A stretch of 64,000 bases of DNA from a plasmid: sequence record AP029160.1; one strand, given 5' to 3'. The position numbers and the translations under genes are program-made. Of the stretch, positions 1-54,962 are shown piece after piece (the first letter of the stretch is position 1; every line of letters starts with the position of its first letter). The notes beneath the pieces are model-generated. The model did no database searches. It saw only the letters and a list, made by a program, of their open reading frames with translations, and was not told the DNA's origin.

Positions 1-279
1 CTGAGATCTTATCAATAGTCATGAATAAATTCAGTGGAACAAGAAATCTTTCATTAATATCTGCCCCTTGGGCTGAGAATGCAGCTATTTTTAAATTTTC
101 ATTTAGAAACCAGTTTCCCTTAGCCTTATCAGCATCCGCTTGGGAATTAAAACTATTTCCTTTAATTATATTCATAGTAGGCCACGTTAATTCTGAATCC
201 AAAAAAATAGGGCTTATAATTATGAATGGCGCATTTGATACATCACAGCTATGAGAAACCACCATGCTATATGAGTGAT

Positions 280-609
280 TTAAAGTCTGCGTTGTGATTC
301 CAGAACATTGAAACTTAACACATCCCCTTGGAACAAGTTCAAACCATTTTTAGGCGCAACTACCTTTGAAAAAGTTGTTACTGGATTGAGAACAGTACCC
401 CTTTTAAAAATCTCCCCAAATGGAGCTTGAGCTGGGACACCTCTTGTATCAGGATTTTCCGTTTTCCCATACATATCAGCAAGCATTGTCGCTGTATGAT
501 AAGACGAACTCGTTTTTTGTCCCATAATCATTAAAGGAAAAGAAGCTCCAGCTTTATCCAATTCATCTGTATAGTCTTTTAAACTCTTCAATTTATTCAT
601 ATTGAACAA
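280..609 (-). CDS. hypothetical protein (109 aa)
   Basis: ORF track. Abuts the upstream ORF 612..890 with a 2-nt gap, suggesting an operon. No recognisable motif. Confidence 0.35.
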   Translation of the reverse strand: MFNMNKLKSLKDYTDELDKAGASFPLMIMGQKTSSSYHTATMLADMYGKTENPDTRGVPAQAPFGEIFKRGTVLNPVTTFSKVVAPKNGLNLFQGDVLSFNVLESQRRL

Positions 610-611
610 TC

Positions 612-890
612 CTAATTTTCTTTTTTAATTAAAGTTTGATTAGGAAAATAATCGGCTATAGCTGCATCAACGTTAGCTTGCCATCCATGCTCTAAGGGAA
701 ACATGGTGATATAGCCGATAAGTGACATAGAACTAGTATCCTCATCATCTCCTTCCATAGGCACTCTTGCATCATGAAGTAGGCTTTTAACTTGTTTTGG
801 TTGTAATTTACCTTGATATTTCTTAGAGATATATCCTAAAACTTGATCTAACCGACGGAGTCTTTCCCCTTTCGGAGGCATTTCATTCAA
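612..890 (-). CDS. hypothetical protein (92 aa)
   Basis: ORF track. Co-oriented and adjacent to 280..609. No recognisable motif. Confidence 0.35.
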   Translation of the reverse strand: MNEMPPKGERLRRLDQVLGYISKKYQGKLQPKQVKSLLHDARVPMEGDDEDTSSMSLIGYITMFPLEHGWQANVDAAIADYFPNQTLIKKEN

Positions 891-1101
891 AGGTCTTTTT
901 TCCCATTCTAATATTGTCCTTTCAGAAACTAAAAATATTATTTTCCATTATGATTACATATTTTTTAAAAATTAGGAGCGACCCACCTCATACAAGAGAT
1001 ATGCTTATCTTAAGGAACAAACTAAAGTCGCATCGAGATTTTATGACAATAATATTTTTTAAAATCAATATTTTAAACGAGTAAATTTAAGACAAAAATC
1101 A

Positions 1102-1860
1102 TTATTTATGCAAATCCTTTATTTCTTTAAAAATGTCATTCTCTAAATCATCGAAAACAATCGGATGTGCAAAAGCGTTTAACATTAGGTCAAATATTTC
1201 AACAAGATTTTCCTTTAGTTTTTCGGGGTTGACTTCATTTATATAAGTCATTGGACTTGAAGGAGTACCAGTATAGCTAATTTTGGGATAATAACATTCA
1301 TGAATAGCTAAACGCATATCTTTCACAGAATAAATTAATCTATAATTCCAACAGGATTTTAAGTTCGAGTAATAATCTCTTTTTTTATCTAAAGATAATT
1401 CCTCAAAATTACTTAAAAATATTTCTTTTTCATAAGCGATTTGTTTTTTCTTATTAGTATCAAATACAAGAAATCCTTTTGAATCTTCATTTATCAGAAT
1501 TTCTTTTATTAATAAAAATAAATTAAAACTTCCTTTTTTCATATATATTTTTGCATGTTCTAATGTTGTGTAATTAAAAACCCGATTTTTATATTTTTGA
1601 ATTTCAGATATAGGAAGACCTACTGGTGTAAATGAATGTTTGTGCCACTCTACTAACTCATCTTTTGTGGGAAGAGAGCCATCTTCAAAACAAATGACGC
1701 TGTCTATACCACAATAAGGACATAAAGCGGTTTCATTATTATCAACATATTCTTTTATTTCAGAAGTTTCAAATGTCTCCAAGCAATAAAAACAGGAACA
1801 CTTCTTAACTTTTTCAAGTATTTTTCGATTCTTAAAAGAAAGTTGTCCTTGCAATGACAT
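1102..1860 (-). CDS. hypothetical protein with N-terminal zinc-ribbon (CxxC...CxxC)
   Basis: ORF track. N-terminus has CSCFYC...CPYCG, two CxxC pairs. The rest has no recognisable domain. Confidence 0.45.
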   Translation of the reverse strand: MSLQGQLSFKNRKILEKVKKCSCFYCLETFETSEIKEYVDNNETALCPYCGIDSVICFEDGSLPTKDELVEWHKHSFTPVGLPISEIQKYKNRVFNYTTLEHAKIYMKKGSFNLFLLIKEILINEDSKGFLVFDTNKKKQIAYEKEIFLSNFEELSLDKKRDYYSNLKSCWNYRLIYSVKDMRLAIHECYYPKISYTGTPSSPMTYINEVNPEKLKENLVEIFDLMLNAFAHPIVFDDLENDIFKEIKDLHK

Positions 1861-1960
1861 TTTTTTATACTCACTTATTTACTAATTAATCATTATTTAA
1901 TCAAATAATACTTGAATAAGTTCTATTTTTATCAACATATACCGCAAAATAGTAGATCAA

Positions 1961-2137
1961 TTACTCATCTACTTGATTAGAATTAGTAATAACTGCTAAT
2001 TCTTCTTCATGAACCGGAACAACCCTTGCACATGGGACACCATTTTTAGTTATAACAAAACTAAAATTTGCCAGGCATGCTTTTTCAACCATTTCTTCTA
2101 AATTTTCCATAGCATCTTCAAAAGTTACACTGAACAT
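1961..2137 (-). CDS. Phd/YefM-family antitoxin-like small protein (58 aa, possibly C-terminally truncated)
   Basis: Own translation (below the ORF-track size cutoff): MFSVTFEDAMENLEEMVEKACLANFSFVITKNGVPCARVVPVHEEELAVITNSNQVDE. AGGAG RBS 8 nt upstream. The ITKNGxPxAxVVP pattern matches the Phd/YefM fold. Confidence 0.4.
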   Translation of the reverse strand: MFSVTFEDAMENLEEMVEKACLANFSFVITKNGVPCARVVPVHEEELAVITNSNQVDE

Positions 2138-2189
2138 TAATAATACTCCTTATTTTTAGAAGTTAAATCAAATTAACTTCTTGTTCAAT

Positions 2190-2248
2190 GGGGTTCTGGG
2201 CGCTTTGAAGGGTGAGTAGATGGACCCCTTCAAAGCGCTCGGAACCCC
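2190..2248. promoter_or_regulatory. GC-rich near-perfect palindrome (23-bp arms, 12-nt loop)
   Basis: ggggttctgggcgctttgaaggg / ccccttcaaagcgctcggaacccc, with 2 mismatches. Lies between the Phd-like gene start and the first CRISPR repeat. Confidence 0.5.
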
Positions 2249-2254
2249 AGTATG

Positions 2255-4269
2255 GCTGAGACTTGCAGTGAATAAACGCTTTGATATGCTTTCTTCAACA
2301 AGTGATTTTACTAGTTCATTGCTGAGACTTGCAGTGAATAAACGCTTTGATATGCTTTTAGGGTCAAAAGTGGAGGAGCTAGGTCTGCTGAGACTTGCAG
2401 TGAATAAACGCTTTGATATGCTAAAACCTTGCAAAGCAAATGCAAAGGACATGCTGAGACTTGCAGTGAATAAACGCTTTGATATGCTAAAATTCGTTAC
2501 ATCAGCTCCAGCAGGAAAGCTGAGACTTGCAGTGAATAAACGCTTTGATATGCTATTTCAGTTGATTTCCAATATGGTTTTGTTGCTGAGACTTGCAGTG
2601 AATAAACGCTTTGATATGCTAGATACACTACCACCAATTGTATTGAGCGAGCTGAGACTTGCAGTGAATAAACGCTTTGATATGCTTGTTAGGAATTTAA
2701 ATACTTCACCTTTAATGCTGAGACTTGCAGTGAATAAACGCTTTGATATGCTATAATTTCAGGAATTAAATCCCCTTTTATTGCTGAGACTTGCAGTGAA
2801 TAAACGCTTTGATATGCTCAGAAGGCGATTTACCGGAGGGCGTTTCTAGCTGAGACTTGCAGTGAATAAACGCTTTGATATGCTAGATTGTACCGCTTGC
2901 AGGTAGCTTAATTTGCTGAGACTTGCAGTGAATAAACGCTTTGATATGCTATCTGTCGGATTCGTGTCCGACACTTTGTTGCTGAGACTTGCAGTGAATA
3001 AACGCTTTGATATGCTTTAATAGATATAGATAAAGTTACTTTATGGGCTGAGACTTGCAGTGAATAAACGCTTTGATATGCTAATACTTTTGAAATGGAA
3101 CCTCATATTTTAGCTGAGACTTGCAGTGAATAAACGCTTTGATATGCTTGATTATTTAAATTTAGATAATATAAATTAGCTGAGACTTGCAGTGAATAAA
3201 CGCTTTGATATGCTCGCATCGGATGATATAAAATCACCATCTGCGCTGAGACTTGCAGTGAATAAACGCTTTGATATGCTAAATTTTTTGAGTTTTTGTG
3301 GCCTACTATCGCTGAGACTTGCAGTGAATAAACGCTTTGATATGCTATATAGGCACGATTTCGAAAGAGCGGGATTGCTGAGACTTGCAGTGAATAAACG
3401 CTTTGATATGCTTCGTTGGACGCAAACATGGAATAGCAATTGGCTGAGACTTGCAGTGAATAAACGCTTTGATATGCTAATAGGATGTACTTATATATTC
3501 AGACATATGCTGAGACTTGCAGTGAATAAACGCTTTGATATGCTATTATTTATAGGAAATAGGACAACGTGTCCGCTGAGACTTGCAGTGAATAAACGCT
3601 TTGATATGCTTTTTTTCTTTTTTAATAAAGACAATTATGTGCTGAGACTTGCAGTGAATAAACGCTTTGATATGCTAAAGCTTCTTTAAAACATTTCTTA
3701 AAAGTGGCTGAGACTTGCAGTGAATAAACGCTTTGATATGCTTTCTAATTTTGTTGGCAAAAATGATTTGATGCTGAGACTTGCAGTGAATAAACGCTTT
3801 GATATGCTGCCACGTTATGATCGCCTGCACCAAGAGAGCTGAGACTTGCAGTAAATAAACGCTTTGATATGCTTAAAATTTTTAATTCAGTTCATAGTAT
3901 TCTGCTGAGACTTGCAGTGAATAAACGCTTTGATATGCTCAAACGTACCGTTAGAATTTATTGCTATTTGCTGAGACTTGCAGTGAATAAACGCTTTGAT
4001 ATGCTAAAACCAGCTTCTTTCAGACAAGAAAGAACGCTGAGACTTGCAGTGAATAAACGCTTTGATATGCTAGTGAGAGGCTAGGATCATTTTCCGCGAC
4101 AGCTGAGACTTGCAGTGAATAAACGCTTTGATATGCTTTCTTTACTGGATTCTACAAATTCGAATTCGCTGAGACTTGCAGTGAATAAACGCTTTGATAT
4201 GCTTAGAAATCATAAAATATTAAACATGATAATGCTGAGACTTGCAGTGAATAAACGCTTTGATATGCT
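2255..4269 (+). CRISPR. CRISPR array, 31 repeats of 36 nt (GCTGAGACTTGCAGTGAATAAACGCTTTGATATGCT), ~30 spacers of 29-31 nt
   Basis: Exact 66-bp periodicity. One variant repeat (G->A at ~3853). Adjacent to cas2. The repeat 3' part is complementary to the tracrRNA anti-repeat. Confidence 0.97.
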
Positions 4270-4274
4270 AGATC

Positions 4275-4310
4275 CTAATATAATTTCATAATTATATTAG
4301 GGTTTTTTGT
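4275..4310 (+). terminator. rho-independent terminator at the cas2-proximal end of the array
   Basis: Perfect 12-bp stem cctaatataatt/aattatattagg, followed by gttttttgtgatttt on the + strand. Confidence 0.5.
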
Positions 4311-4320
4311 GATTTTAGGC

Positions 4321-4674
4321 TCAAAAAAGTAGAATTTGAGGGAGTGGTTTTTCAATATTACCCTCGTTTTTTCCAAAAAAGACTTTTCGTTTTCCAAATT
4401 GTTTATCAGTAACCAATAATAATCTTACTTGTCCAGAAGGTGGAATTCTTTCTTGAATCATATTTTGTAAGCTTATGCTAGCTTCTTCACTTGAAAAATA
4501 GATAGCATAGACTGAAAATTGAAGCATTGTGAATCCTTTAGAAATCAGAAACTTTCTAAATTTAGTATATTCTTTCCGATCTATTTTTGTCACAACTGGT
4601 AAATCAAATAATGCAAATAGCCACACTGCGCTGTATGCTCCTGGTCCATTTATATTTTTATTATTTATTTTCAA
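4321..4674 (-). CDS. cas2: CRISPR-associated endoribonuclease Cas2
   Basis: 117 aa. Position after cas1. Cas2-like core LQFSVYAIY. Confidence 0.85.
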   Translation of the reverse strand: MKINNKNINGPGAYSAVWLFALFDLPVVTKIDRKEYTKFRKFLISKGFTMLQFSVYAIYFSSEEASISLQNMIQERIPPSGQVRLLLVTDKQFGKRKVFFGKNEGNIEKPLPQILLF

Positions 4675-4706
4675 ATAAACTCTTCTTTATAAAAATTTTC
4701 TAATTT

Positions 4707-5597
4707 CTATTTAAGAAGATTCGGTAAAATAATTTTAGGTTCTTGGGAAAGAAATGCATTAGAGAGACTTTGTGCTGATAGGGTAATTATATCCTGAAGC
4801 GGTCGTTCTTCCTTGTTGAAATTAAATTTTTTATACATAATTTCAATTAAACGTTTTTTGATTGATGTGTCTAAATTGAATGGACTCTGTAATTCTTCTG
4901 AAATTAAAAAAACTTCATTGTCAATAATTGGACGAAAAGGTTCCATAACATCATCCGCTAAGCAAAATGCATTGTACTTGCTTTTATGAAATATTCCTAT
5001 GGAAGGATTTAAGCCTGTAGCGCATAATGATCTTGCAACGACGGCCCTTAAAATAGCATACCCATAATTTAAAAATTTATTTTCGTCTTCAGCAGAAATA
5101 TCCCTTTTGAATTCTTTCATAGGATGTATATTTTTCCAATATATTCTGGCAGCCTGTGCTTCTAAATTTCCTTCGTCTCCACTTTTAACTTCTTTGCACA
5201 TTTTTAAAAGTCCAAAATGAGCACCTTTTTTTCTTAATAAAAGAGAGCCTTGAACTTCAATTTTTCGTGCAATAACCTTTTTCCAAAGTTGTTTTTTAAA
5301 TGGAATTGAAGAGAGAATCTGTTTTGCAAAACGCTGTGTTTGCGAAGAATGAGCATCAAGTGGTAAAAGCATTCCTATGGGCATGTGCCTTTCATCGCTA
5401 CAAACAAATATACTTCCATTTTCAGATAATTTTGAAAGTACTGCATGCGTGTATGTTACTGCTGGTGAAGAAACAATGAGAGCAGCAATATCAGAAAAAG
5501 GTAAGGTAACTCTATTTTCTCCTTCAATGACAAGGAGGTCATTGAAGGAGGAAAGACGCACTTTCTGAGTAGAAATATCAATAATTTTTTTTGTCAT
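4707..5597 (-). CDS. cas1: CRISPR-associated integrase Cas1 (type II)
   Basis: 296 aa. The start overlaps the cas9 stop (ATGA). Type II Cas1-like sequence. Confidence 0.9.
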   Translation of the reverse strand: MTKKIIDISTQKVRLSSFNDLLVIEGENRVTLPFSDIAALIVSSPAVTYTHAVLSKLSENGSIFVCSDERHMPIGMLLPLDAHSSQTQRFAKQILSSIPFKKQLWKKVIARKIEVQGSLLLRKKGAHFGLLKMCKEVKSGDEGNLEAQAARIYWKNIHPMKEFKRDISAEDENKFLNYGYAILRAVVARSLCATGLNPSIGIFHKSKYNAFCLADDVMEPFRPIIDNEVFLISEELQSPFNLDTSIKKRLIEIMYKKFNFNKEERPLQDIITLSAQSLSNAFLSQEPKIILPNLLK

Positions 5598-8500
5598 TCA
5601 TGACTTTCAAAAAGATCACCCAATGGGGAAACAATAATTTTTTTACATTTTAGAGCATATAATGAATTTGGTGAGACATTAGGAAAATCAGATGTCTTAA
5701 TTCTGTCACATTGAGGCCGAGCATCATGGGAAGGTGAATGGTAAATGCGGGAATCACTTGTAATAGATTTTACACTCCTTAATTTTACCTCTCCATTCTT
5801 ATCTGTTATTTCTATTATGTCTCCCTTCATTAGAGAGAATTTAAAATACCCCCCTTTTTCTTTTAGAGCATCTTTATCAATAACAGGACGATTATTCTTT
5901 TTTCTAGTCATCGCTTCTAGGCGTGAAACAACTATAGCTTCCCAGGTAACTTTTTTTCCTTTTGTAATTTCATAGTAAGCTATATGATGATTCTCATCTG
6001 CTTGAACATTTCTTTCTTGCAATCCCTTTCCAATTTGTAAAGGTGATGCTGTTCGTGCTTTTACACGCACCGACTTAATATATATTTTTTCTCCCTTTTG
6101 TTTTGCAAAAGGTCTTTTAAACTGTTCGTTATGTTTTACAATAAGGAAGGGAAGTGTTTTTTCATCGTCCAATTTGAAAGCTTTTTTTGGAATCTTAGTT
6201 CCAATTTCAGCTAATTTTCTCATAACACAATCTTTAATATTGGGATCAATTATATTTCCTAATTCTCTGTCAGTTAGTGAATCCAAAGGTTTTCGAATTG
6301 GGATATAATTTTCACCTAATTTGTCTTTGTTACTTTTACCATAGAATGTTTCCTTATGTAATGAACCATTAATTTTTCTGTCTACTCTAAAGGATATTTG
6401 AATTTTTGATACATGCTCTTGAGCTTGTTCTAATAAATTCTCCCAAATTTTATCTAATTTTCCAAATTTGCTTTTAGATTCCTTTTCCGCATTTTTTGCT
6501 GCTCGATTGAGTAAGTTTATAGATTTTTCAGATGTTAAAGCAATTACAAGTGCATCTACTGCATGATGTCTGTGGTCATTTCTTGATTTTATATTTTCTT
6601 TTGAAAGTATTGAATTTAATTTCCACATATTTCGTAAATAGGCAGTTATTTGACCAGTGCTTGCTCTTACTCGGAGATAATTGTTCCCATCAACTTCTCC
6701 TCCATAAAGAAGTCCTAGATAATTTTTTGCAAGTTTTGTTGCATAACGGGTATCATTTAACATTTGGCTAGCAAAATCTTGTTCACTTGTTGCATCTTTT
6801 TGCTTAAAAAGTTGTATTTTTTTATATTTCCCATTTCCTTTGAATTTTTCAACCCTTTTTAATATTTCTGAGTATTTTTCTGGACTGCCAATCCCATAAG
6901 CTTCATACGGGGTTTGGTTTTTTTTAACATTTCTATTTTCAAAATAATGGCAAAGAGTTTTATTTAAAAAAGAATCATCAAGACTTCTACTCAAAGGTAC
7001 AATATGTTCCACATCAAATTGAGGATTTTTCCCAAAGAGATCTTCCATGCTTATTATCTTTCCTGTATAGGGGCATTGATAATTGCATTCAACATATAAT
7101 AGATATTTTTCAATATCAGACTTACTTATTTTAAGGCTTGGTGAGTATTCTAATATTTTATTTTCTGCTTCTACTCTTTCGCTAGCACGACTTTTATTAG
7201 CCTTTAAAATATTTTCTCTAAACTCTTTTCCTTTTTTGAGTTCACGCGCAAGTTCTATTCGTATCTGTTTAGGTTTTCCGTACTTCTTGATTATGCTGTT
7301 TACAATTTTTCGAAGCTCAGACAAAGTTCTTGAAACTATCGGATTGCGTAAAGAAGGATCGACTTTACCATAAGATGGTAATAAATTAAAAATGTTTTTA
7401 TCGTTTTCATCTTTATAACCTGCATTTATTTTTGCTTCATAAAGATCCTTTCCTTCTCTTAAAAATGGAAGGATTTTTTCAACTGCGGTACTACTATATG
7501 CGAGGTAGCCTTCTTCTAAATTTATTTGAGAAAGTTTAGATGCTGTTTCTGAGTCTAATTTCCATTTTTCTTTAAAATGCTTTTCTAGTGCAATTTGTGA
7601 ATCAAAACTAATTAAAGCATTTACAATTTTTTCTTGATCAATTTTACTATGAGAGAAGAATCCACTGTAAACACTGAAAATTTTGCTAGAAGTGGTATCT
7701 CCTTTCACTTCATTTTCATCATATTTGAATTTTTCATCTTTTTCCAAGTTTAATATTTTTTTTAAGTAAGAAACTTTTATTTTATCTTTCTTTAAAAATT
7801 CATTGAAAATAATCTCTCTCTCATAAGGGGTCAATGATCTTTCTGTAGTAGTTGAAAAGCTATTTATAATCCGAAAATTATTTATCGTTTGTTTTGCTCT
7901 AAATTCTTGTGCATTTAAAAATGCAATTTTCATTCTTCTTTTGTCTTTTTCAAGTTTACAAAATCCAATAAATTTTTTAACAGATTTAAGAGGCCTTTGG
8001 TGAAAAATAGATTTATATATATTTTTTTTAACTTCGTTGTTTTCAAAAAAATGATTATTGCCTAATGAAATTTGTGAGCTTATAATTTTTTCATATTCTT
8101 CTTCATACATTTTTCGAGAAGTATATTTTTTTCTAATTCTAATTTTATCAGGTTCAAAAGTTGAAAAAAGTTCTCCTAAAGTTCTAAATTCACTTTCTTC
8201 CATGTTCTCATATAACTTTTTAATCCCTCCTAAAACATTGCCAGTTTCAGCACTTTTACCAGATTTCCTATTACTTAAAAATCCTCTTCTTTGGCCTAAA
8301 TGAAACAATGCCCTACCTATTTCAAAAGGCTCTAATTTTTCATCTAATGCAATTTTACGCAAAAAATAAGGAAACACATTTGGAAGAGTTTTTTTATAAA
8401 TTTTATATAAATGTGGTTTGTGAGGGAGTACGAGACTCCATTTTTTTAATAAATCTATATCTAAATCTCTAATTATTTCTTGTCGAACTTCAAGCATTCT

Positions 8501-8857
8501 GCGTCTTATTTCTTTTTTTTTGGCTTGATTTGATATATTTTCTTCAAATGGGGAATTTATTTTTCCTAGTTGTGATTTAGAGAAGTTTGGGAGCAGAGAT
8601 GATTCTTGTAAAATTTTAAATAATTTGTTCATGCGCATCATACGACGATCTCGTGCTCTACGTGTTAAACGTGCTTCTCTTCTTTGAGCATTTTTAGAAC
8701 TTTCTGTGCCGAATTGATCTCTATTTACACCCTCATCAAAAATACGTACCCCCATTTTTTCAATATTTTGTTTTTCTTCATTGATTAGGCTCCAACCAAT
8801 ACTAGATGTTCCAAGATCTAAGCCCAAGATTAATTCATTAGTAGTTAAAGAACTCAT
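5594..8857 (-). CDS. cas9: Cas9 (type II-C size class, 1087 aa)
   Basis: RuvC-I motif LGLDLGTSSIGWSL at the N-terminus, HNH motif DVEHIVPLSRSLDDSFLNKTL, RuvC-III HHAVDALVIALT. No csn2 or cas4 in the locus. Confidence 0.93.
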   Translation of the reverse strand: MSSLTTNELILGLDLGTSSIGWSLINEEKQNIEKMGVRIFDEGVNRDQFGTESSKNAQRREARLTRRARDRRMMRMNKLFKILQESSLLPNFSKSQLGKINSPFEENISNQAKKKEIRRRMLEVRQEIIRDLDIDLLKKWSLVLPHKPHLYKIYKKTLPNVFPYFLRKIALDEKLEPFEIGRALFHLGQRRGFLSNRKSGKSAETGNVLGGIKKLYENMEESEFRTLGELFSTFEPDKIRIRKKYTSRKMYEEEYEKIISSQISLGNNHFFENNEVKKNIYKSIFHQRPLKSVKKFIGFCKLEKDKRRMKIAFLNAQEFRAKQTINNFRIINSFSTTTERSLTPYEREIIFNEFLKKDKIKVSYLKKILNLEKDEKFKYDENEVKGDTTSSKIFSVYSGFFSHSKIDQEKIVNALISFDSQIALEKHFKEKWKLDSETASKLSQINLEEGYLAYSSTAVEKILPFLREGKDLYEAKINAGYKDENDKNIFNLLPSYGKVDPSLRNPIVSRTLSELRKIVNSIIKKYGKPKQIRIELARELKKGKEFRENILKANKSRASERVEAENKILEYSPSLKISKSDIEKYLLYVECNYQCPYTGKIISMEDLFGKNPQFDVEHIVPLSRSLDDSFLNKTLCHYFENRNVKKNQTPYEAYGIGSPEKYSEILKRVEKFKGNGKYKKIQLFKQKDATSEQDFASQMLNDTRYATKLAKNYLGLLYGGEVDGNNYLRVRASTGQITAYLRNMWKLNSILSKENIKSRNDHRHHAVDALVIALTSEKSINLLNRAAKNAEKESKSKFGKLDKIWENLLEQAQEHVSKIQISFRVDRKINGSLHKETFYGKSNKDKLGENYIPIRKPLDSLTDRELGNIIDPNIKDCVMRKLAEIGTKIPKKAFKLDDEKTLPFLIVKHNEQFKRPFAKQKGEKIYIKSVRVKARTASPLQIGKGLQERNVQADENHHIAYYEITKGKKVTWEAIVVSRLEAMTRKKNNRPVIDKDALKEKGGYFKFSLMKGDIIEITDKNGEVKLRSVKSITSDSRIYHSPSHDARPQCDRIKTSDFPNVSPNSLYALKCKKIIVSPLGDLFESHE

Positions 8858-8926
8858 TTTTAGTACTCATAATAAAAGGATAAGAAAAAATTGACTTTTC
8901 TAATAAAACAAATTATTTAAATTTGT

Positions 8927-9024
8927 AAAGCATATCAAAGCGGTTATTCCATTGCTTGCTTTAGCAAGGGTTTATGCCCGCAGCCTTAAAAAGCTAGAGG
9001 GGCTTTCGTGGCTCCTCTTTTTTT
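8927..9024 (+). ncRNA. tracrRNA: predicted tracrRNA
   Basis: The first 14 nt of AGCATATCAAAGCGGTTATTCC (8929..) equal the reverse complement of the repeat 3' end, 20/22 overall, and an imperfect match continues further. Then an AAGG...CCTT nexus-like segment, then a terminator hairpin GAGGGGC-tttcgtg-GCTCCTC plus T7. A TTGACT -35 lies at 8891-8896. Confidence 0.75.
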
Positions 9025-9375
9025 GTTCTGTTGCAAAGATTTCAAAGTAACAAAGAACCTTGGAATTGATTTTCAAAACGACTATTCCAGACGCAATTAT
9101 CCAGCGAGGGAGCTAAATTGCTCCCAAATAGGCAAATGACTTTTAAATTTGAATTGCCCTTTTCTGAGCATATGATGGAGTTCAATACCTGTTAAAGTAG
9201 CTTTCGCCAATTTCAATGAGAAGAAACCAAACATAAGCTTCACTTTCTTTTTTATAAATCGATGGTCTTGTTCTACAAGATTATTTAGAGATTTATTTTG
9301 TCTTATTAAGATCTTATCTTCAGATTTAAGATCTTTGTTGATAACATTTAAAACTGCAAATACAAAAAATAAGTG
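9025..9375 (-). mobile_element. 3' remnant of a divergent IS6-family element
   Basis: GTTCTGTTGCAAA inverted repeat at 9025 and a transposase C-terminal coding remnant (...IWEQF.SLAG). It differs from the main IS6 copies in the subterminal region. Confidence 0.65.
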
Positions 9376-9428
9376 AATTTAAATATTTTTTTATCATTAA
9401 TTTTTCATTTCGATTAAGATTCATAAGC

Positions 9429-10331
9429 TTATTTTACCGCACCACTATCAATCAATGAGTGTTCTTTATGAGCATTTAACATTTGTTCATCATCAATTTT
9501 TCTTTCTCTTGATTCTAAATTTTTATAAATATAATCATCTCCATTTGTCTTTTCAGTAAGATGAAAATGTTTTAGTTTTAGCTCTATGTTTTCACGTTTA
9601 AGGGCTTCTTCTTTTTTAATTGACTCTAATTTCTCTAATAAAACAGCTTTATCAATTTCAAGCTTTTGAATGCTAAGAGCATTTAGTTCTGCTTTTTTAA
9701 GCCTTTCTTCAAGTTCCATAATTTTTTTCTTAGCTTCAAATTCCCTCTCTTCATAAGCACTATTCAATTTATTTTTATCCTCAAGTTGCTTCTTTAAGAT
9801 TGCAAGATCGCTTAAAAGCTGATTCATTTTTGCTTCTTGATTTTCAATAATATCTCTTAAAGATAAAATTTCTTTTTCTTTTGCTTCAAGCTCAAATCTT
9901 TGCTTCTCTTTATTTTGCAATACAAGATCAGTAAATTTTGCTTCTAATTCTTGATTTTTGCGTTCAAATTCCTCTTGTAGTTTTCCTTCTAATCCCTTTT
10001 TATATTCTTCAAATTCCCCCCTCTCTCTATTGAGTTCTTGCAATTCTTTTTTAGCTTGTTCCTGCATTTCAAATGCAATCAAGAGTTGCGAGCGATTAAG
10101 CTGGTTCAATCGGTTTGTGAGAATATCCACTTCTGCCAATGCTTTTTTTTGCTCGCTTTCTTCAGGTAGTGTTTGCATTTTAAAGGCTTCAACAGCGGCT
10201 TTAAAATATTGTTGCGGTTTCATTCCAGAGCGGTTGATTTCATTTTGAAAAAATTCACGCTCCTCAATAGAACTACAACGAAATTGGATTCTTGGATCAA
10301 TTTTTGAGGTGTTTACTTCTTCTATTGTCAT
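9429..10331 (-). CDS. coiled-coil protein with MobC-like RHH N-terminus
   Basis: N-terminus RIQFRCSSIEEREFFQNEINRSGMKPQQYFKAAV resembles the MobC ribbon-helix-helix. The remainder is heptad-rich E/K coiled coil. Confidence 0.35.
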   Translation of the reverse strand: MTIEEVNTSKIDPRIQFRCSSIEEREFFQNEINRSGMKPQQYFKAAVEAFKMQTLPEESEQKKALAEVDILTNRLNQLNRSQLLIAFEMQEQAKKELQELNRERGEFEEYKKGLEGKLQEEFERKNQELEAKFTDLVLQNKEKQRFELEAKEKEILSLRDIIENQEAKMNQLLSDLAILKKQLEDKNKLNSAYEEREFEAKKKIMELEERLKKAELNALSIQKLEIDKAVLLEKLESIKKEEALKRENIELKLKHFHLTEKTNGDDYIYKNLESRERKIDDEQMLNAHKEHSLIDSGAVK

Positions 10332-10522
10332 TTAAATTTCCCTTTTCGATTGAATTATTTTTTTAAAGATAAATTCATTATTCCTATACTTATCAATACC
10401 TTCTATTTTAGCGAATTCAGTGTTTTTATTTATTGTGATTTGATTTTTTGGAATTTGGTCTGGAGCATCTCCCATGATTGTAGCTTCAGGAACATTATTT
10501 TTTTTATGTATAAAAGCACTTC

Positions 10523-10987
10523 TTAATTCATAATTTTTAAAAAAAAATCGACTCTAATACAATTATCAGAAATAATTTCATAAAAATGAAAACCACTTTT
10601 TATTTTAACATTATTAATTTTAATATCTTTTTCAAGAGCAACTATATTTTGATTTTTAAAAAAATTTAATTTTTGAATTTTATCACTTTTTTCAGGATTG
10701 AATATAGTATCCTGAACAGCATCAAAATTCATTATAAAGAGCGATTTTTGATCTTTTCCATGCTCTTTATTTTTTGAATATTCTTTAAAAAATGTATTTA
10801 ATCTTTTATCTAGTTTTTGTTTTATATAATATTTTTTTATTGTTGGACAAGCGAGAAATATAAGAGTACCAACGGTTCCTATTGCAGCAACCCATGTTCC
10901 TATTGCGGTTATAAAATACCATGCGGTATCCCAAGTCCATTTTGAATCAATAATATGTTTAAATTGACAAAAAATATAATCAAACAT
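10523..10987 (-). CDS. membrane protein (start trimmed to internal Met to avoid overlap with the integrase)
   Basis: Predicted TM segment WYFITAIGTWVAAIGTVGTLIFLA. Lies downstream of the integrase. Confidence 0.3.
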   Translation of the reverse strand: MFDYIFCQFKHIIDSKWTWDTAWYFITAIGTWVAAIGTVGTLIFLACPTIKKYYIKQKLDKRLNTFFKEYSKNKEHGKDQKSLFIMNFDAVQDTIFNPEKSDKIQKLNFFKNQNIVALEKDIKINNVKIKSGFHFYEIISDNCIRVDFFLKIMN

Positions 10988-12014
10988 TTTTATCTCCTCT
11001 TTCTTTTTGATATTTAACTTTTCTTGCTGCACTTTCTTTTTCTTCATCGGTTTTCCGGATGTACATCATGGTGGTCATCATACTTTTATGACCAAGGAGA
11101 TCTTGAATTTCAGACAAGGGAACCCCATTCCTGTGAAGATGACTTGCAACAGTGGCACGGCAGGAGTGCGGGCTAATTTCTTTTGTAATTCCATGCTCAC
11201 GCGCAATACTTGTCACCATGCGCGCAAGGTAATCCCGATTGATTGGTTTTTTTGAGAACGGTGTAAGAGCAAAGAGAAAATCCTCTTTTTTAGCAAGAGG
11301 TCTTAAAGTAACAATGTAGCTTTTAAGGAGTGCGGCTAATTCATCACTTATTAAGGGAGCATGAATTTCTCCGCCTTTGATTTTCAAATGCAGCCTAGGG
11401 TATTTTCCTGTCAGGTCCAGATCTTTAATTTTGAGGGAACACAATTCTGTTGCTCTCATCCCTACGTGTGAGAGCGTGCTAAAAACGATGAAGCGAAGCC
11501 ATGCCCGATAATCCTCTTTTACTTTAAGAGGGTTTGTTGCTTTCTTATAGGACTCTTCGAGCGACTCTAAAATGCGAGCAATCTCTGCTTCTGATAATGC
11601 CTCTGTTTTCCCTTTAGATTTCTGTACTTTAGGCAAGCGTATGGCAGCCCCAGCATTTCTATCCACCCATCCTTCTTGAAACGAAAATTTAAGGAAGGAC
11701 AAAAGCGGAGAAAGCTTTGCGCACACCGAAGACGGCGGGTATGTGGCCAAAAGATAGCGTTTGTACGCATCCACATGATCTCGTTGAATTTCAGCGAGGC
11801 TTGCAAACGCAACCCCTTTTTCTAAACAAAATGCAAAAAAATCCCTTAAATGACGGGCATAATTTTGTCGTGTGTTATCACTTACATAACTGCCTAAAAA
11901 TCGAGCTTGTTTTAAGGCGATTTCAGGGGGGGATTTTTCAAAGTTGGTACTAGGAGACCCCCCAATTGAAGTTGAAGGTTGCTCTATGGATTGGCAATAT
12001 TGAGTTTCAGGCAT
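10980..12014 (-). CDS. tyrosine site-specific recombinase/integrase
   Basis: C-terminal catalytic signature HSCRATVASHL...LLGHKSMMTTMMYI (R..HxxR..Y). Confidence 0.85.
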   Translation of the reverse strand: MPETQYCQSIEQPSTSIGGSPSTNFEKSPPEIALKQARFLGSYVSDNTRQNYARHLRDFFAFCLEKGVAFASLAEIQRDHVDAYKRYLLATYPPSSVCAKLSPLLSFLKFSFQEGWVDRNAGAAIRLPKVQKSKGKTEALSEAEIARILESLEESYKKATNPLKVKEDYRAWLRFIVFSTLSHVGMRATELCSLKIKDLDLTGKYPRLHLKIKGGEIHAPLISDELAALLKSYIVTLRPLAKKEDFLFALTPFSKKPINRDYLARMVTSIAREHGITKEISPHSCRATVASHLHRNGVPLSEIQDLLGHKSMMTTMMYIRKTDEEKESAARKVKYQKERGDKNV

Positions 12015-12338: not shown

Positions 12339-12956
12339 ATGATTTCTTTCAAAGGAGAGAAAATGGAAAACCCAAAATCACCGTTTGCAATTGCTCACTA
12401 TATTTATAGCGAAATAAACAAAGGTAAATCCAGCCATACTCTTGAAAGAGAGCTTAAACTTAGTAAATACTATATAAATAAACATATTTGGCTCTGCACA
12501 TGGCCAAAAGAACTTGTTGATTCCTGTTTATTCTATCCTGATATTTTTACACCTCGCATTTTATTTTCCACATTTGCTTCAAGACAAAAATATTATTCAA
12601 AAAATGAATTTGAATACCTTAGAACAGAAATTGAAAAATTAATTCAAAAAGGTGCTAAACATAAGCCCAGGAAAGCAGTCAATTACCCCAAAATGAGGGC
12701 AGGCGGTTCTCTTATAACACAAAGAGTTAGAAAAGAAAATCTTAAAAAAATTGAAAAAGAATTAGCTATAAAAAAGAAAATAAATGAAGAATTGAAATTG
12801 AATTTAGAAGAACTTTTGTATTATCAACAGCAATTTAAAGAACTTCTTGGATTTCATGTTGTAGTACAATATTCTAAATCAAAACAAGAGGGAGAAATCA
12901 GAATCAACTTTAAAAATGAAAAAGATTTAGATTATTTACTCAGTAAAATGAACTAA
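12339..12956 (+). CDS. hypothetical protein (205 aa), possibly DNA-binding
   Basis: ORF track. Basic and lysine-rich. Located in the integrase islet. Confidence 0.35.
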   Translation: MISFKGEKMENPKSPFAIAHYIYSEINKGKSSHTLERELKLSKYYINKHIWLCTWPKELVDSCLFYPDIFTPRILFSTFASRQKYYSKNEFEYLRTEIEKLIQKGAKHKPRKAVNYPKMRAGGSLITQRVRKENLKKIEKELAIKKKINEELKLNLEELLYYQQQFKELLGFHVVVQYSKSKQEGEIRINFKNEKDLDYLLSKMN

Positions 12957-13014
12957 AAAATCAGGATAAAATTTGATGTATTTAAATACAAATGAAATTT
13001 ATAAGTAGAATCAT

Positions 13015-13650
13015 ATGCAAAATCAAGAAATATATCATTTCACACATAAAGATAATATTGTTTCTATTATTAAAAGTAATGGGATTTTTTCAACAAATAA
13101 TGGTAAAATAAATAAAATTGAATTTAAAGATGCTTCTTATCTTAATATTCAGGATCGAAGAAGTCGCGCTCTAGTCAATACAAAAATAAATGGTGTTTTA
13201 CATGATTATATACCTTTTTATTTTGCTCCTCGCTCTCCAATGTTATACGCCCACTATAAGAACAAAGTAACTTCTAAAATAAAACAGTCGGATTTGGTAT
13301 ACTTGGTATCTTCCATTGGTTCTGTGGTAAACGATAAATTAAATTATGCTTTTACTGACGGCCATGCTGCTCAAAACATATCTAGTTTTTTTGATGATTT
13401 AAAAGATCTCAATCAAATAGATTGGCCCCTGATGAAAGATAAAATGTGGAATAATACTTTGGAAGATACGGACAGGACAAGACGCAGGCAAGCTGAATTC
13501 CTGGTAAAAGATTTTTTTCCATTTCAATTAGTTCATAAAATTGGGGTCTTTGATGAAAGTAATAAAAAATACATTATATCCATTCTAAAAAATAATGATA
13601 AAGAAAATATGGTAAAACATGTTTTTATCGAACGTTATTGGTATTTTTAG
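13015..13650 (+). CDS. darT: DarT ssDNA ADP-ribosyltransferase toxin (DUF4433)
   Basis: YHFTH N-terminus, HDYIPFYFAPRSPMLY motif, RRQAEFLV catalytic-Glu motif. A macrodomain partner gene follows. Confidence 0.8.
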   Translation: MQNQEIYHFTHKDNIVSIIKSNGIFSTNNGKINKIEFKDASYLNIQDRRSRALVNTKINGVLHDYIPFYFAPRSPMLYAHYKNKVTSKIKQSDLVYLVSSIGSVVNDKLNYAFTDGHAAQNISSFFDDLKDLNQIDWPLMKDKMWNNTLEDTDRTRRRQAEFLVKDFFPFQLVHKIGVFDESNKKYIISILKNNDKENMVKHVFIERYWYF

Positions 13651-23660: not shown

Positions 23661-24428
23661 ATGTCTAAAAGGATAATCTTATTTACTTTTCTTTCTTTTA
23701 TCGTTTTTAGCTGCTCAAAAGGTGAAGGTGGAAGCATTGATAAAAATTCGTCAGATGCAACGGCTAATAACGATCTTTGTAAAATTCATTCAACAGCAAT
23801 AAATTCTAACGAAAAAATATCATATCAATACAATGCAATTAATTCACAATGGGAACTACTTCCAAGCTATCAAATTACACCTGATACAACACAAGTAAGT
23901 GGCACACCAATTCAATTAAGTCCAAACTCTCCAGAAATGATTATTAGTGGAAATGTTGGGCAAATTCCAAATGTCAACAATTTTATATCTTATACTTTAA
24001 GTAATAGTAATTTTGTTTATTTAACTAAATTACCTTCAATACCAACTGATAAAAGTATCGTTCAAGTAAATACAAACTCTAATTACATAGCAACAATAGA
24101 TTCAACATTATTTGGTGGTAATTTAGCTGACCTTAAAGGAAATGCTGGTAATTTATTTATCCATCATAGTGTAATAACTTCTCCACTCTATTTCATATAT
24201 GATCAAGCTTCACAGTCTTGGAGCCTTGTAAATAGTGTTTTAAATTTAATGGCAGGAAGTATTGCTCAATTGAATGGGCAATTACCAAGTGGAAACTTTA
24301 GTGCAATTAATTTTAGTTTATCTGCATATAGCTTTGTAACACCAGTGTATTTACCTAAAAATCCAATTGATAAAATGAAAATTAATATAATTAATAATAC
24401 GAATCAAAATGCGAATATTTGTTACTAA
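23661..24428 (+). CDS. lipoprotein (255 aa)
   Basis: Lipobox FSC after the signal peptide. Ser/Asn/Thr-rich. Confidence 0.55.
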   Translation: MSKRIILFTFLSFIVFSCSKGEGGSIDKNSSDATANNDLCKIHSTAINSNEKISYQYNAINSQWELLPSYQITPDTTQVSGTPIQLSPNSPEMIISGNVGQIPNVNNFISYTLSNSNFVYLTKLPSIPTDKSIVQVNTNSNYIATIDSTLFGGNLADLKGNAGNLFIHHSVITSPLYFIYDQASQSWSLVNSVLNLMAGSIAQLNGQLPSGNFSAINFSLSAYSFVTPVYLPKNPIDKMKINIINNTNQNANICY

Positions 24429-54194: not shown

Positions 54195-54962
54195 ATGTCT
54201 AAAAGGATAATCTTATTTACTTTTCTTTCTTTTATCGTTTTTAGCTGCTCAAAAGGTGAAGGTGGAAGCATTGATAAAAATTCGTCAGATGCAACGGCTA
54301 ATAACGATCTTTGTAAAATTCATTCAACAGCAATAAATTCTAACGAAAAAATATCATATCAATACAATGCAATTAATTCACAATGGGAACTACTTCCAAG
54401 CTATCAAATTACACCTGATACAACACAAGTAAGTGGCACACCAATTCAATTAAGTCCAAACTCTCCAGAAATGATTATTAGTGGAAATGTTGGGCAAATT
54501 CCAAATGTCAACAATTTTATATCTTATACTTTAAGTAATAGTAATTTTGTTTATTTAACTAAATTACCTTCAATACCAACTGATAAAAGTATCGTTCAAG
54601 TAAATACAAACTCTAATTACATAGCAACAATAGATTCAACATTATTTGGTGGTAATTTAGCTGACCTTAAAGGAAATGCTGGTAATTTATTTATCCATCA
54701 TAGTGTAATAACTTCTCCACTCTATTTCATATATGATCAAGCTTCACAGTCTTGGAGCCTTGTAAATAGTGTTTTAAATTTAATGGCAGGAAGTATTGCT
54801 CAATTGAATGGGCAATTACCAAGTGGAAACTTTAGTGCAATTAATTTTAGTTTATCTGCATATAGCTTTGTAACACCAGTGTATTTACCTAAAAATCCAA
54901 TTGATAAAATGAAAATTAATATAATTAATAATACGAATCAAAATGCGAATATTTGTTACTAA
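54195..54962 (+). CDS. lipoprotein, identical duplicate of 23661..24428
   Basis: Identical protein in the ORF track. Confidence 0.55.
   Translation: MSKRIILFTFLSFIVFSCSKGEGGSIDKNSSDATANNDLCKIHSTAINSNEKISYQYNAINSQWELLPSYQITPDTTQVSGTPIQLSPNSPEMIISGNVGQIPNVNNFISYTLSNSNFVYLTKLPSIPTDKSIVQVNTNSNYIATIDSTLFGGNLADLKGNAGNLFIHHSVITSPLYFIYDQASQSWSLVNSVLNLMAGSIAQLNGQLPSGNFSAINFSLSAYSFVTPVYLPKNPIDKMKINIINNTNQNANICY

Follow-up and report, generated by a model that had tools for sequence, protein, structure and literature searches.

A type II-C CRISPR-Cas9 locus on plasmid AP029160.1 with likely promoters in its repeats and a predicted terminator beside the last repeat

In this study, the organization, conservation and probable mode of expression of a CRISPR locus were investigated in a plasmid stretch of 64,000 nucleotides (nt; sequence record AP029160.1), which is referred to here as the window and has a GC content of 30.5%. 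The locus is a type II-C CRISPR-Cas9 system of the ordinary Neisseria and Campylobacter style. Reading along the locus, we observed a trans-activating CRISPR RNA (tracrRNA), the genes cas9-cas1-cas2 on the opposite strand, a predicted terminator and the array, in that order. It is probable that the array is transcribed on the + strand from promoters situated in its repeats, giving a nested set of transcripts which end at a single terminator at the far end of the array.

Organization of the locus

The genes and the array are located as follows.

2255..4269, + strand: CRISPR array with 30 spacers between 31 repeats of 36 nt, with the CRISPR RNA (crRNA) sense on the + strand
2255-2290, + strand: presumed oldest or "extra" repeat, exactly equal to the consensus
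4234-4269, + strand: presumed newest, acquisition-proximal repeat
4321..4674, - strand: cas2 (Pfam PF09827, E 9e-14), 72% identical to the Pigmentibacter Cas2
4321-4323: stop codon of cas2
4707..5597, - strand: cas1 (Pfam PF01867, E 1.5e-24)
5594..8857, - strand: cas9, encoding 1087 amino acids (aa), of type II-C size and domain set (Pfam RuvC_III, HNH_4 and Cas9_a)

The repeat reads GCTGAGACTTGCAGTGAATAAACGCTTTGATATGCT on the + strand and is identical in 30 of its 31 copies, the sole variant being the copy at 3838-3873 with the change G16A. All 30 spacers are unique, and they are 30 nt long with the exception of one of 29 nt. Five open reading frames (ORFs) overlapping the array (2168-2452, 2220-2756, 3103-3439, 3192-3689 and 3869-4084) were rejected as genes, being artefacts of the repeat periodicity, as seen for instance in the reiterated LRLAVNKRFDML.

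The gene set consists of cas9, cas1 and cas2, and neither csn2 nor cas4 was found by Pfam among the ORFs around the locus. The Cas9 of the window shares 61% identity with the Cas9 of Pigmentibacter sp. JX0631. Among its 2828 homologues with E <= 1e-20, the best 120 are Cas9/Csn1 proteins of about 980-1130 aa, and the closest solved structures, at E 1e-67 to 1e-69, consist of Cas9 chains with lengths of about 1082-1095 aa, including chains which we take to be the Cas9 of N. meningitidis. By its length and homologues, this protein can be placed in the compact type II-C lineage. The host is an AT-rich bacterium, of which the nearest named relative as judged from Cas9 is Pigmentibacter (Silvanigrellaceae). 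A single-protein scan of genome contigs gave no close Cas9 relative, and a metagenome scan gave one relative with 95% identity, whose contig stops within cas9 and hence contains no array.

Promoter-like motif in the repeats

The promoter-like element, with coordinates for the first repeat, is made up as follows.

2263..2290, + strand: promoter-like element (repeat positions 9-36, in all 31 repeats)
2263-2268, + strand: -35-like TTGCAG (repeat positions 9-14)
2282-2283, + strand: TG of an extended -10 (repeat positions 28-29)
2285-2290, + strand: -10 hexamer TATGCT (repeat positions 31-36)

The initial annotation of this DNA had proposed that every repeat contains TTGCAG at positions 9-14 and TGaTATGCT at positions 28-36, and both were found exactly there in all 31 repeats, with a gap of 16 nt (positions 15-30) between the -35-like element and the -10 hexamer. 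The sequence at positions 28-36, TGATATGCT, amounts to a sigma-70 -10 box in the crRNA sense and is also present in 31 of 31 copies. In the array the composite motif TTG-N16-TGnTAnnnT has 31 occurrences, and the remainder of the window, both strands considered, has 4, against 4.8 expected by chance; for a given 36-mer on a given strand the chance is about 3e-4, and the 31 repeat copies are to be counted as one evolutionary observation.

To extend these observations beyond one array, 52 distinct 36-nt repeats from the arrays of Cas9 relatives were aligned without gaps in the crRNA sense. In this set, T31 and T36 were conserved in 52 repeats each, A32 in 51, T9 in 50, and A34 and G11 in 47 each. 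The trinucleotide TTG at positions 9-11 was noticed in 36 of the 52, and three of them display TTGACA-16-TACA[CT]T. TG at positions 28-29 was observed in 16, including all five members of a small clade made up of the window and the loci L001, L002, L003 (Pigmentibacter) and L004, whose Cas9 proteins are 89%, 81%, 61% and 44% identical to that of the window, respectively. Within this clade the TG is invariant and the -10 hexamer varies solely at positions 33 and 35, which are the least critical ones. The repeats of Pigmentibacter sp. JX0631 and P. ruber, the nearest cultured relatives, end in TGATACGCT. It was also observed that T26 is present in 50 of the 52 related type II-C repeats, a degree of conservation like that of the -10 positions, which is explained neither by the promoter model nor by any other test made in this study.

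Decayed terminal "extra" repeats were found to have lost positions 1-8 and kept positions 9-36, and only the 3' 14 nt remain of the extra repeat of L004. This pattern of decay is in line with a published proposal by which the extra repeat has to remain the promoter for the first spacer (PMC12080349).

The promoter reading given in the initial annotation therefore survives in part, as the extended -10 has key positions which are conserved throughout the family, whereas TTGCAG is the weaker element and only its TTG is conserved. Judged from these sequence comparisons, promoter activity of the repeat is likely. The start of transcription would be expected at about nt 6-7 of the spacer, which would leave a guide of about 24-25 nt.

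Strand of the crRNAs and the tracrRNA

The candidate tracrRNA lies upstream of cas9 and is composed of the following parts.

8891-8896, + strand: -35 candidate TTGACT of the tracrRNA
8914-8919 and 8918-8923, + strand: -10 candidates TATTTA and TAAATT of the tracrRNA, respectively
8929..9025, + strand: candidate tracrRNA, divergent from cas9, with anti-repeat, tail and terminator and a predicted 5' end
About 8929-8964, + strand: anti-repeat, the site outside the array that best matches the reverse complement of the repeat
Tail, + strand: structured and containing AAGG
8996-9018 and 9019-9025, + strand: terminator of the tracrRNA, composed of a GC-rich hairpin and a T-run, respectively

The crRNAs can be assigned securely to the + strand, opposite to cas9-cas1-cas2, because the anti-repeat of the tracrRNA pairs with the + strand repeat. 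As the initial annotation had indicated, the anti-repeat is complementary to this strand, and we found the complementarity to extend over 36 of 36 nt, with a duplex energy of -41.5 kcal/mol. Its assignment of the crRNAs to the strand opposite the cas genes is likewise upheld by this pairing and by the tracrRNA's own terminator. The tracrRNA is kept in the two closest loci, L001 and L002, and in 11 of 12 distant relatives it occupies the same place and strand, with a clear terminator and mostly a -35 of the TTGACA type. By the tracrRNA complementarity, and with the cas genes on the - strand, the array would be convergent with and antisense to the cas operon, an arrangement which has been published for N. 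meningitidis, for C. jejuni and for type II-C systems generally.

The -10 of the tracrRNA is ambiguous, as TTGACW-17-TAnnnA shows constant spacing in three loci, and an alternative is provided by TAnnnT hexamers that precede the anti-repeat's G by 6 nt and lie at a variable distance from the -35. An Rfam E-value search of positions 1-12000 did not return any tracrRNA or CRISPR family.

Terminator between the last repeat and cas2

One further element stands between the array and cas2.

4271..4308, + strand: predicted intrinsic terminator, within the 51-nt gap from the last repeat to the cas2 stop, which is the presumed acquisition leader

A perfect stem of 12 base pairs (bp) is formed by CCTAATATAATT (4274-4285) with AATTATATTAGG (4290-4301) around the loop 4286-4289. 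This stem extends to 15 pairs (4271-4304), and it is followed by a T-run at 4303-4308 and further Ts up to 4317. The hairpin has an energy of -15 kcal/mol (z = -4.5 relative to shuffles). Hairpin and T-run together end 13 nt short of the cas2 stop and nearly fill the 51-nt gap. The hairpin and T-run terminator which the initial annotation had placed at 4275-4310 is thus real, with boundaries off by 1-4 bases. Because only 3 G-C pairs are present in the stem, it was not listed by the general terminator scan, whose minimum for a short stem is 3 such pairs.

In a small sample consisting of the window, L001, L002 and L003, compensatory double changes were observed at 9 of the 15 stem pairs, and in all four the T-run follows the hairpin on the crRNA strand. 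Related loci were also investigated with a detector for hairpins of -10 kcal/mol or lower, directly followed by a T-rich tail and situated at most 70 nt from the last repeat. Of 56 related loci, 14 gave such a terminator on the crRNA strand, with the hairpin beginning 0-19 nt past the last repeat, as compared with 4 on the cas strand and none in 280 shuffles. Two gap terminators among the relatives have runs on both sides; the terminator after the L004 array is of this bidirectional type. The hairpin and T-run of the window may accordingly be described as a conserved + strand intrinsic terminator, at which transcripts would be expected to end.

For type II-C systems it has been published that the last repeat is where new spacers are inserted and that the flanking leader has elements essential for acquisition, and from this behaviour we infer that the newest spacer of the present array is the one at the last repeat. 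The spacers have only chance 14-mers in common with related loci, which thus offer no shared spacer as a check of the polarity. The terminator would stay beside the newest repeat at each spacer addition because it is inside the acquisition leader. If every repeat fires, the promoter of the last repeat is an orphan, as no spacer follows it, which mirrors the problem of the extraneous crRNA at the other end of the array.

Extra repeat and hairpin at the upstream end

The upstream end of the array is preceded by one conspicuous structure.

2189..2249, + strand: GC-rich hairpin of 24 bp, candidate occluder of the guide of the extraneous crRNA

The arms of this hairpin are 92% complementary around a 13-nt loop (z -6.9). 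It is the sole such element in the 64 kb, it ends 5-6 nt before the first repeat, and it has no T-run. No degenerate repeat was found at the transcription-upstream end of the array, as the repeat at 2255-2290 equals the consensus and no degenerate copy is located further upstream. A degenerate extra repeat is common and not universal, being reported for 60% of systems (PMC12080349). According to Feussner et al. 2025, the extraneous crRNA is silenced by a mutated extra repeat, by an upstream terminator or by a helix that occludes the guide (PMC12080349). In the window the 3' arm spans 2226-2249 and the guide region 2230-2254, so that the guide would be held in a helix of the published length of at least 8 bp. 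The window fits the third of these strategies, while L001, L003 and L004, in which the extra repeat is mutated, fit the first. An intact extra repeat with a strong hairpin, set against the mutated repeat of the relatives, would offer a natural comparison of silencing strategies.

Stretches of 8 nt in the arms of the hairpin are also present in the repeat (CGCTTTGA) and in the anti-repeat (TCAAAGCG). The occurrence of CGCTTTGA at 2201-2208 was rejected as a degenerate repeat remnant, since it is 10 nt out of register and lies within the hairpin arm. Sub-threshold matches of this hairpin to microRNA families of Rfam were treated as chance matches which any long hairpin would give.

Proposed crRNA biogenesis and its alternatives

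In the model which we prefer, RNA polymerase would start about 6-7 nt into every spacer, and the 5' end of each crRNA would be set without processing. The repeat-spacer units contain no terminator, as the scan gave only chance hairpins inside two spacers, and the transcript of each repeat should consequently run to 4304-4308. This would generate a nested set of transcripts in which the 5' ends are staggered and the 3' end is common to all. The unit-length transcripts suggested in the initial annotation are not supported, given a single terminator at the end of the array and none in the units, as unit length would need cleavage at the 3' side. The tracrRNA would pair with the whole repeat, and a cut within this duplex, presumably made by RNase III, would produce the 3' ends of the unit crRNAs. 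At the end of the array, the terminator would catch the orphan transcripts of the last repeat and keep array transcription out of the cas2 antisense. At the other end, the very stable GC-rich hairpin ahead of the intact extra repeat would occlude the guide of any extraneous crRNA.

Several observations weigh against this model. The match of the repeat motif to the promoter consensus is weak, with 7 of 12 positions plus TG (3 of 6 at the -35 and 4 of 6 at the -10), which is below the threshold of 9/12 of the promoter scan and left the motif unlisted, and generic promoter-like matches are no commoner in the AT-rich window than in its shuffles. The -10 of the window has a G at -9, a position occupied by A in 47 of the 52 relatives. 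The conservation of repeat positions 1, 3 and 26 equals that of the promoter positions, so that binding by Cas9 and tracrRNA or recognition by the integrase could explain part of the conservation. Moreover, the TTG at positions 9-11 is within the part of the crRNA that is retained in the Cas9 complex, bound to the tracrRNA, the 3' end of the repeat doubles as the leader-repeat junction for integration, and decay of a terminal repeat from its outer edge can happen without selection. As for the terminator, only 14 of the 56 relatives harbor such an element, its stem is A/U-rich, and a transcript from the promoter of the last repeat holds only about 10 of the 15 stem pairs and may terminate poorly.

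Different explanations of the same features were considered. A single promoter upstream of the first repeat could produce a long pre-crRNA processed as in type II-A, the repeat motif being incidental or minor. A 9/12 promoter-like site does exist upstream of the array at 2117-2144 (+ strand), and the repeat motif is under the threshold of the same scan; however, sites of that quality are equally frequent in shuffled sequence, two hairpins, including the 24-bp GC-rich one, are located between this site and the array, and the -10 positions, which coincide with those of validated repeat promoters, are nearly invariant among the 52 related repeats. This explanation is judged improbable. The hairpin at 4271-4304 could instead terminate the cas9-cas1-cas2 operon on the - strand, given that it lies 16 nt past the cas2 stop and can form in the RNA of either strand. 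On the - strand, however, it is followed by AUCUAGCAUAUC, and with no U-run there it is not a canonical cas-operon terminator; the run is on the + strand side, and gap terminators of relatives favor the crRNA strand (14 of 56) over the cas strand (4 of 56). We consider a cas-operon terminator at this position very improbable.

It has also been considered that the 3' end of the repeat and the adjacent hairpin serve the integration of spacers by Cas1-Cas2 at the leader-repeat junction, with the likeness to promoter and terminator being a by-product. The entry of type II-C spacers at the last repeat and the leader elements essential for their acquisition agree with this, the five closest loci resemble one another in the bases that directly follow the last repeat (AGA or ATA), and the other terminus of the repeat (G1, T3) is equally conserved. 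Nevertheless, the structure of the hairpin is kept while its sequence is not, as revealed by the compensatory pairs (9 of 15), and a T-run always follows on the crRNA strand, as would be expected of an RNA terminator more than of a sequence-specific site in DNA. The extra repeats, although remote from the site of integration, retain positions 9-36, and promoter activity at homologous positions has been shown experimentally in two species. As a replacement for the promoter and terminator functions, an integration role has little probability; the two roles can coexist.

Spacers and surroundings of the locus

A comparison of the array with a phage collection, sought for a strand call based on the protospacer-adjacent motif, gave one marginal match of 33 nt (E 0.01), and one spacer that was compared with IMG/VR gave no match. 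Spacer 26 (3940-3969) has an exact 17-nt match, and about 21 of 30 nt overall, common to 23796-23811 and 54330-54345; it may derive from a relative of this resident repeated element and is not a full self-target. A or T is found at spacer position 1 in 26 of 30 spacers and at position 4 in 28 of 30, against an expectation of about 68%, a bias that is not significant once 30 positions are allowed for and that could reflect an acquisition motif or a discriminator preference of the promoter.

Beside the array, an ORF of 58 aa (1961-2137, - strand) contains MFSVTFEDAMENLEEMVEK...ITKNGVPCARVVPV... and presumably resembles an antitoxin of the Phd/YefM type. The flanking ORFs 1102-1860 and 9429-10331 had zero Pfam matches. 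A 33-nt probe taken just past the tracrRNA has eight sites in the window with at most one mismatch (9166-9198, 23303, 25149, 28926, 49842, 53837, 55683 and 56412), which suggests a multi-copy element resembling an insertion sequence, of which a copy or fragment lies directly beside the CRISPR-Cas locus.

Among the relatives, L003 (Pigmentibacter sp. JX0631, CP123622.1) displays two arrays of the same orientation, 5299-6978 and 12546-13400, which flank the cas operon, one being upstream of the tracrRNA and cas9 and the other after cas2. The upstream array shows a tandem duplication of two repeat-spacer units (6619-6737, found again at 6751-6869). In L004, arrays at 100-297 and 4168-4994 flank a cas9 whose product is 44% identical to that of the window, no cas1 or cas2 is present on the contig, and a neighbouring gene gave a faint AcrVA2-like Pfam match.

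Comparison with known systems

Repeat-borne promoters directed against the cas genes became known in 2013, and a new, uncharacterised example of this kind is found in the window. Repeat promoters of N. meningitidis were shown experimentally, with transcripts starting at the sixth nt of the spacer (Zhang et al. 2013, as summarised in PMC5965381 and PMC12477760). According to these summaries, N. meningitidis resembles the window in having only cas9-cas1-cas2, a 36-nt repeat, a Cas9 of about the same length, an array opposite to the cas operon and an acquisition end that is downstream in the sense of transcription. The last nine bases of the repeat follow TGnTAnnnT in the same register in N. meningitidis (TGCTACAAT), C. 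jejuni (TGGTAAAAT) and the window. In comparison with N. meningitidis, the -10 of the window is weaker (TATGCT versus TACAAT), whereas a TTG at -35 distance is present in the window and not in the N. meningitidis repeat. The window also differs in its intact first repeat with a GC-rich hairpin ahead of it, and in the terminator abutting its last repeat, no mention of one for N. meningitidis having been found in the two summarising papers (PMC5965381, PMC12477760).

In C. jejuni, the -10 box is in the 3' part of the repeat, each spacer holds a transcription start, array and cas genes are convergent, and one RNase III cut in the repeat:tracrRNA duplex yields the 3' end of the crRNA (Dugar et al. 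2013, PMC3656092; Pearson et al. 2015, PMC4607530). Its Cas9 (984 aa) is shorter than that of the window, its tracrRNA is beside the array and not upstream of cas9, and the structure upstream of its extra repeat is an intrinsic terminator (PMC12080349), unlike the hairpin without T-run of the window. Pearson et al. 2015 reported that the repeats of 58 type II-C species carry gnTAnaaT at their 3' end, and convergent arrays with a degenerate proximal repeat were likewise reported across these 58 species (PMC4607530). Subsequent publications handle these traits as textbook knowledge. The strong helix over the 25 nt upstream of the first repeat is like the third strategy of Feussner et al. 2025 (PMC12080349), although at 24 bp in a genome of 30% GC it is unusually long and GC-rich.

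The locus order, with a divergent tracrRNA upstream of cas9, is also that of an environmental type II-C clade (loci L006-L085, from Planctomycetota, Acidobacteriota, Lentisphaerota and others), whose Cas9 proteins are 31-40% identical. Its repeats are likewise of 36 nt, start with G[CT]TG, end with TAnnnT and have TTG at positions 9-11, and a quarter of this clade has a terminator after the last repeat, as in the window. Most of its repeats end in TACACT and have no TG, in contrast to the five-member clade of the window, which has TG and G at -9.

Within this locus, only the terminator beside the newest repeat may be new. No description of a terminator after the newest repeat was found in the literature searched, in which the original 2013 study of N. 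meningitidis is not included, and no mention of one after the last repeat was found in PMC12080349, which analysed the upstream side of arrays. We propose only tentatively that a terminator abutting the newest repeat recurs as a module, not described so far, in type II-C arrays whose repeats bear promoters. If this is true, it would stop the orphan promoter of the last repeat as well as antisense transcription into cas2, and would give the precursor of the newest crRNA a defined 3' end. For the remainder, the published type II-C rules predict the anatomy of the locus, which raises no new question on crRNA biogenesis. Its contribution to a well-described class is a set of Cas9, tracrRNA and repeat, as yet uncharacterised, that comes from a Silvanigrellales-like lineage. 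The terminator at the newest repeat, together with the upstream hairpin, is of possible interest for the regulation of CRISPR arrays.

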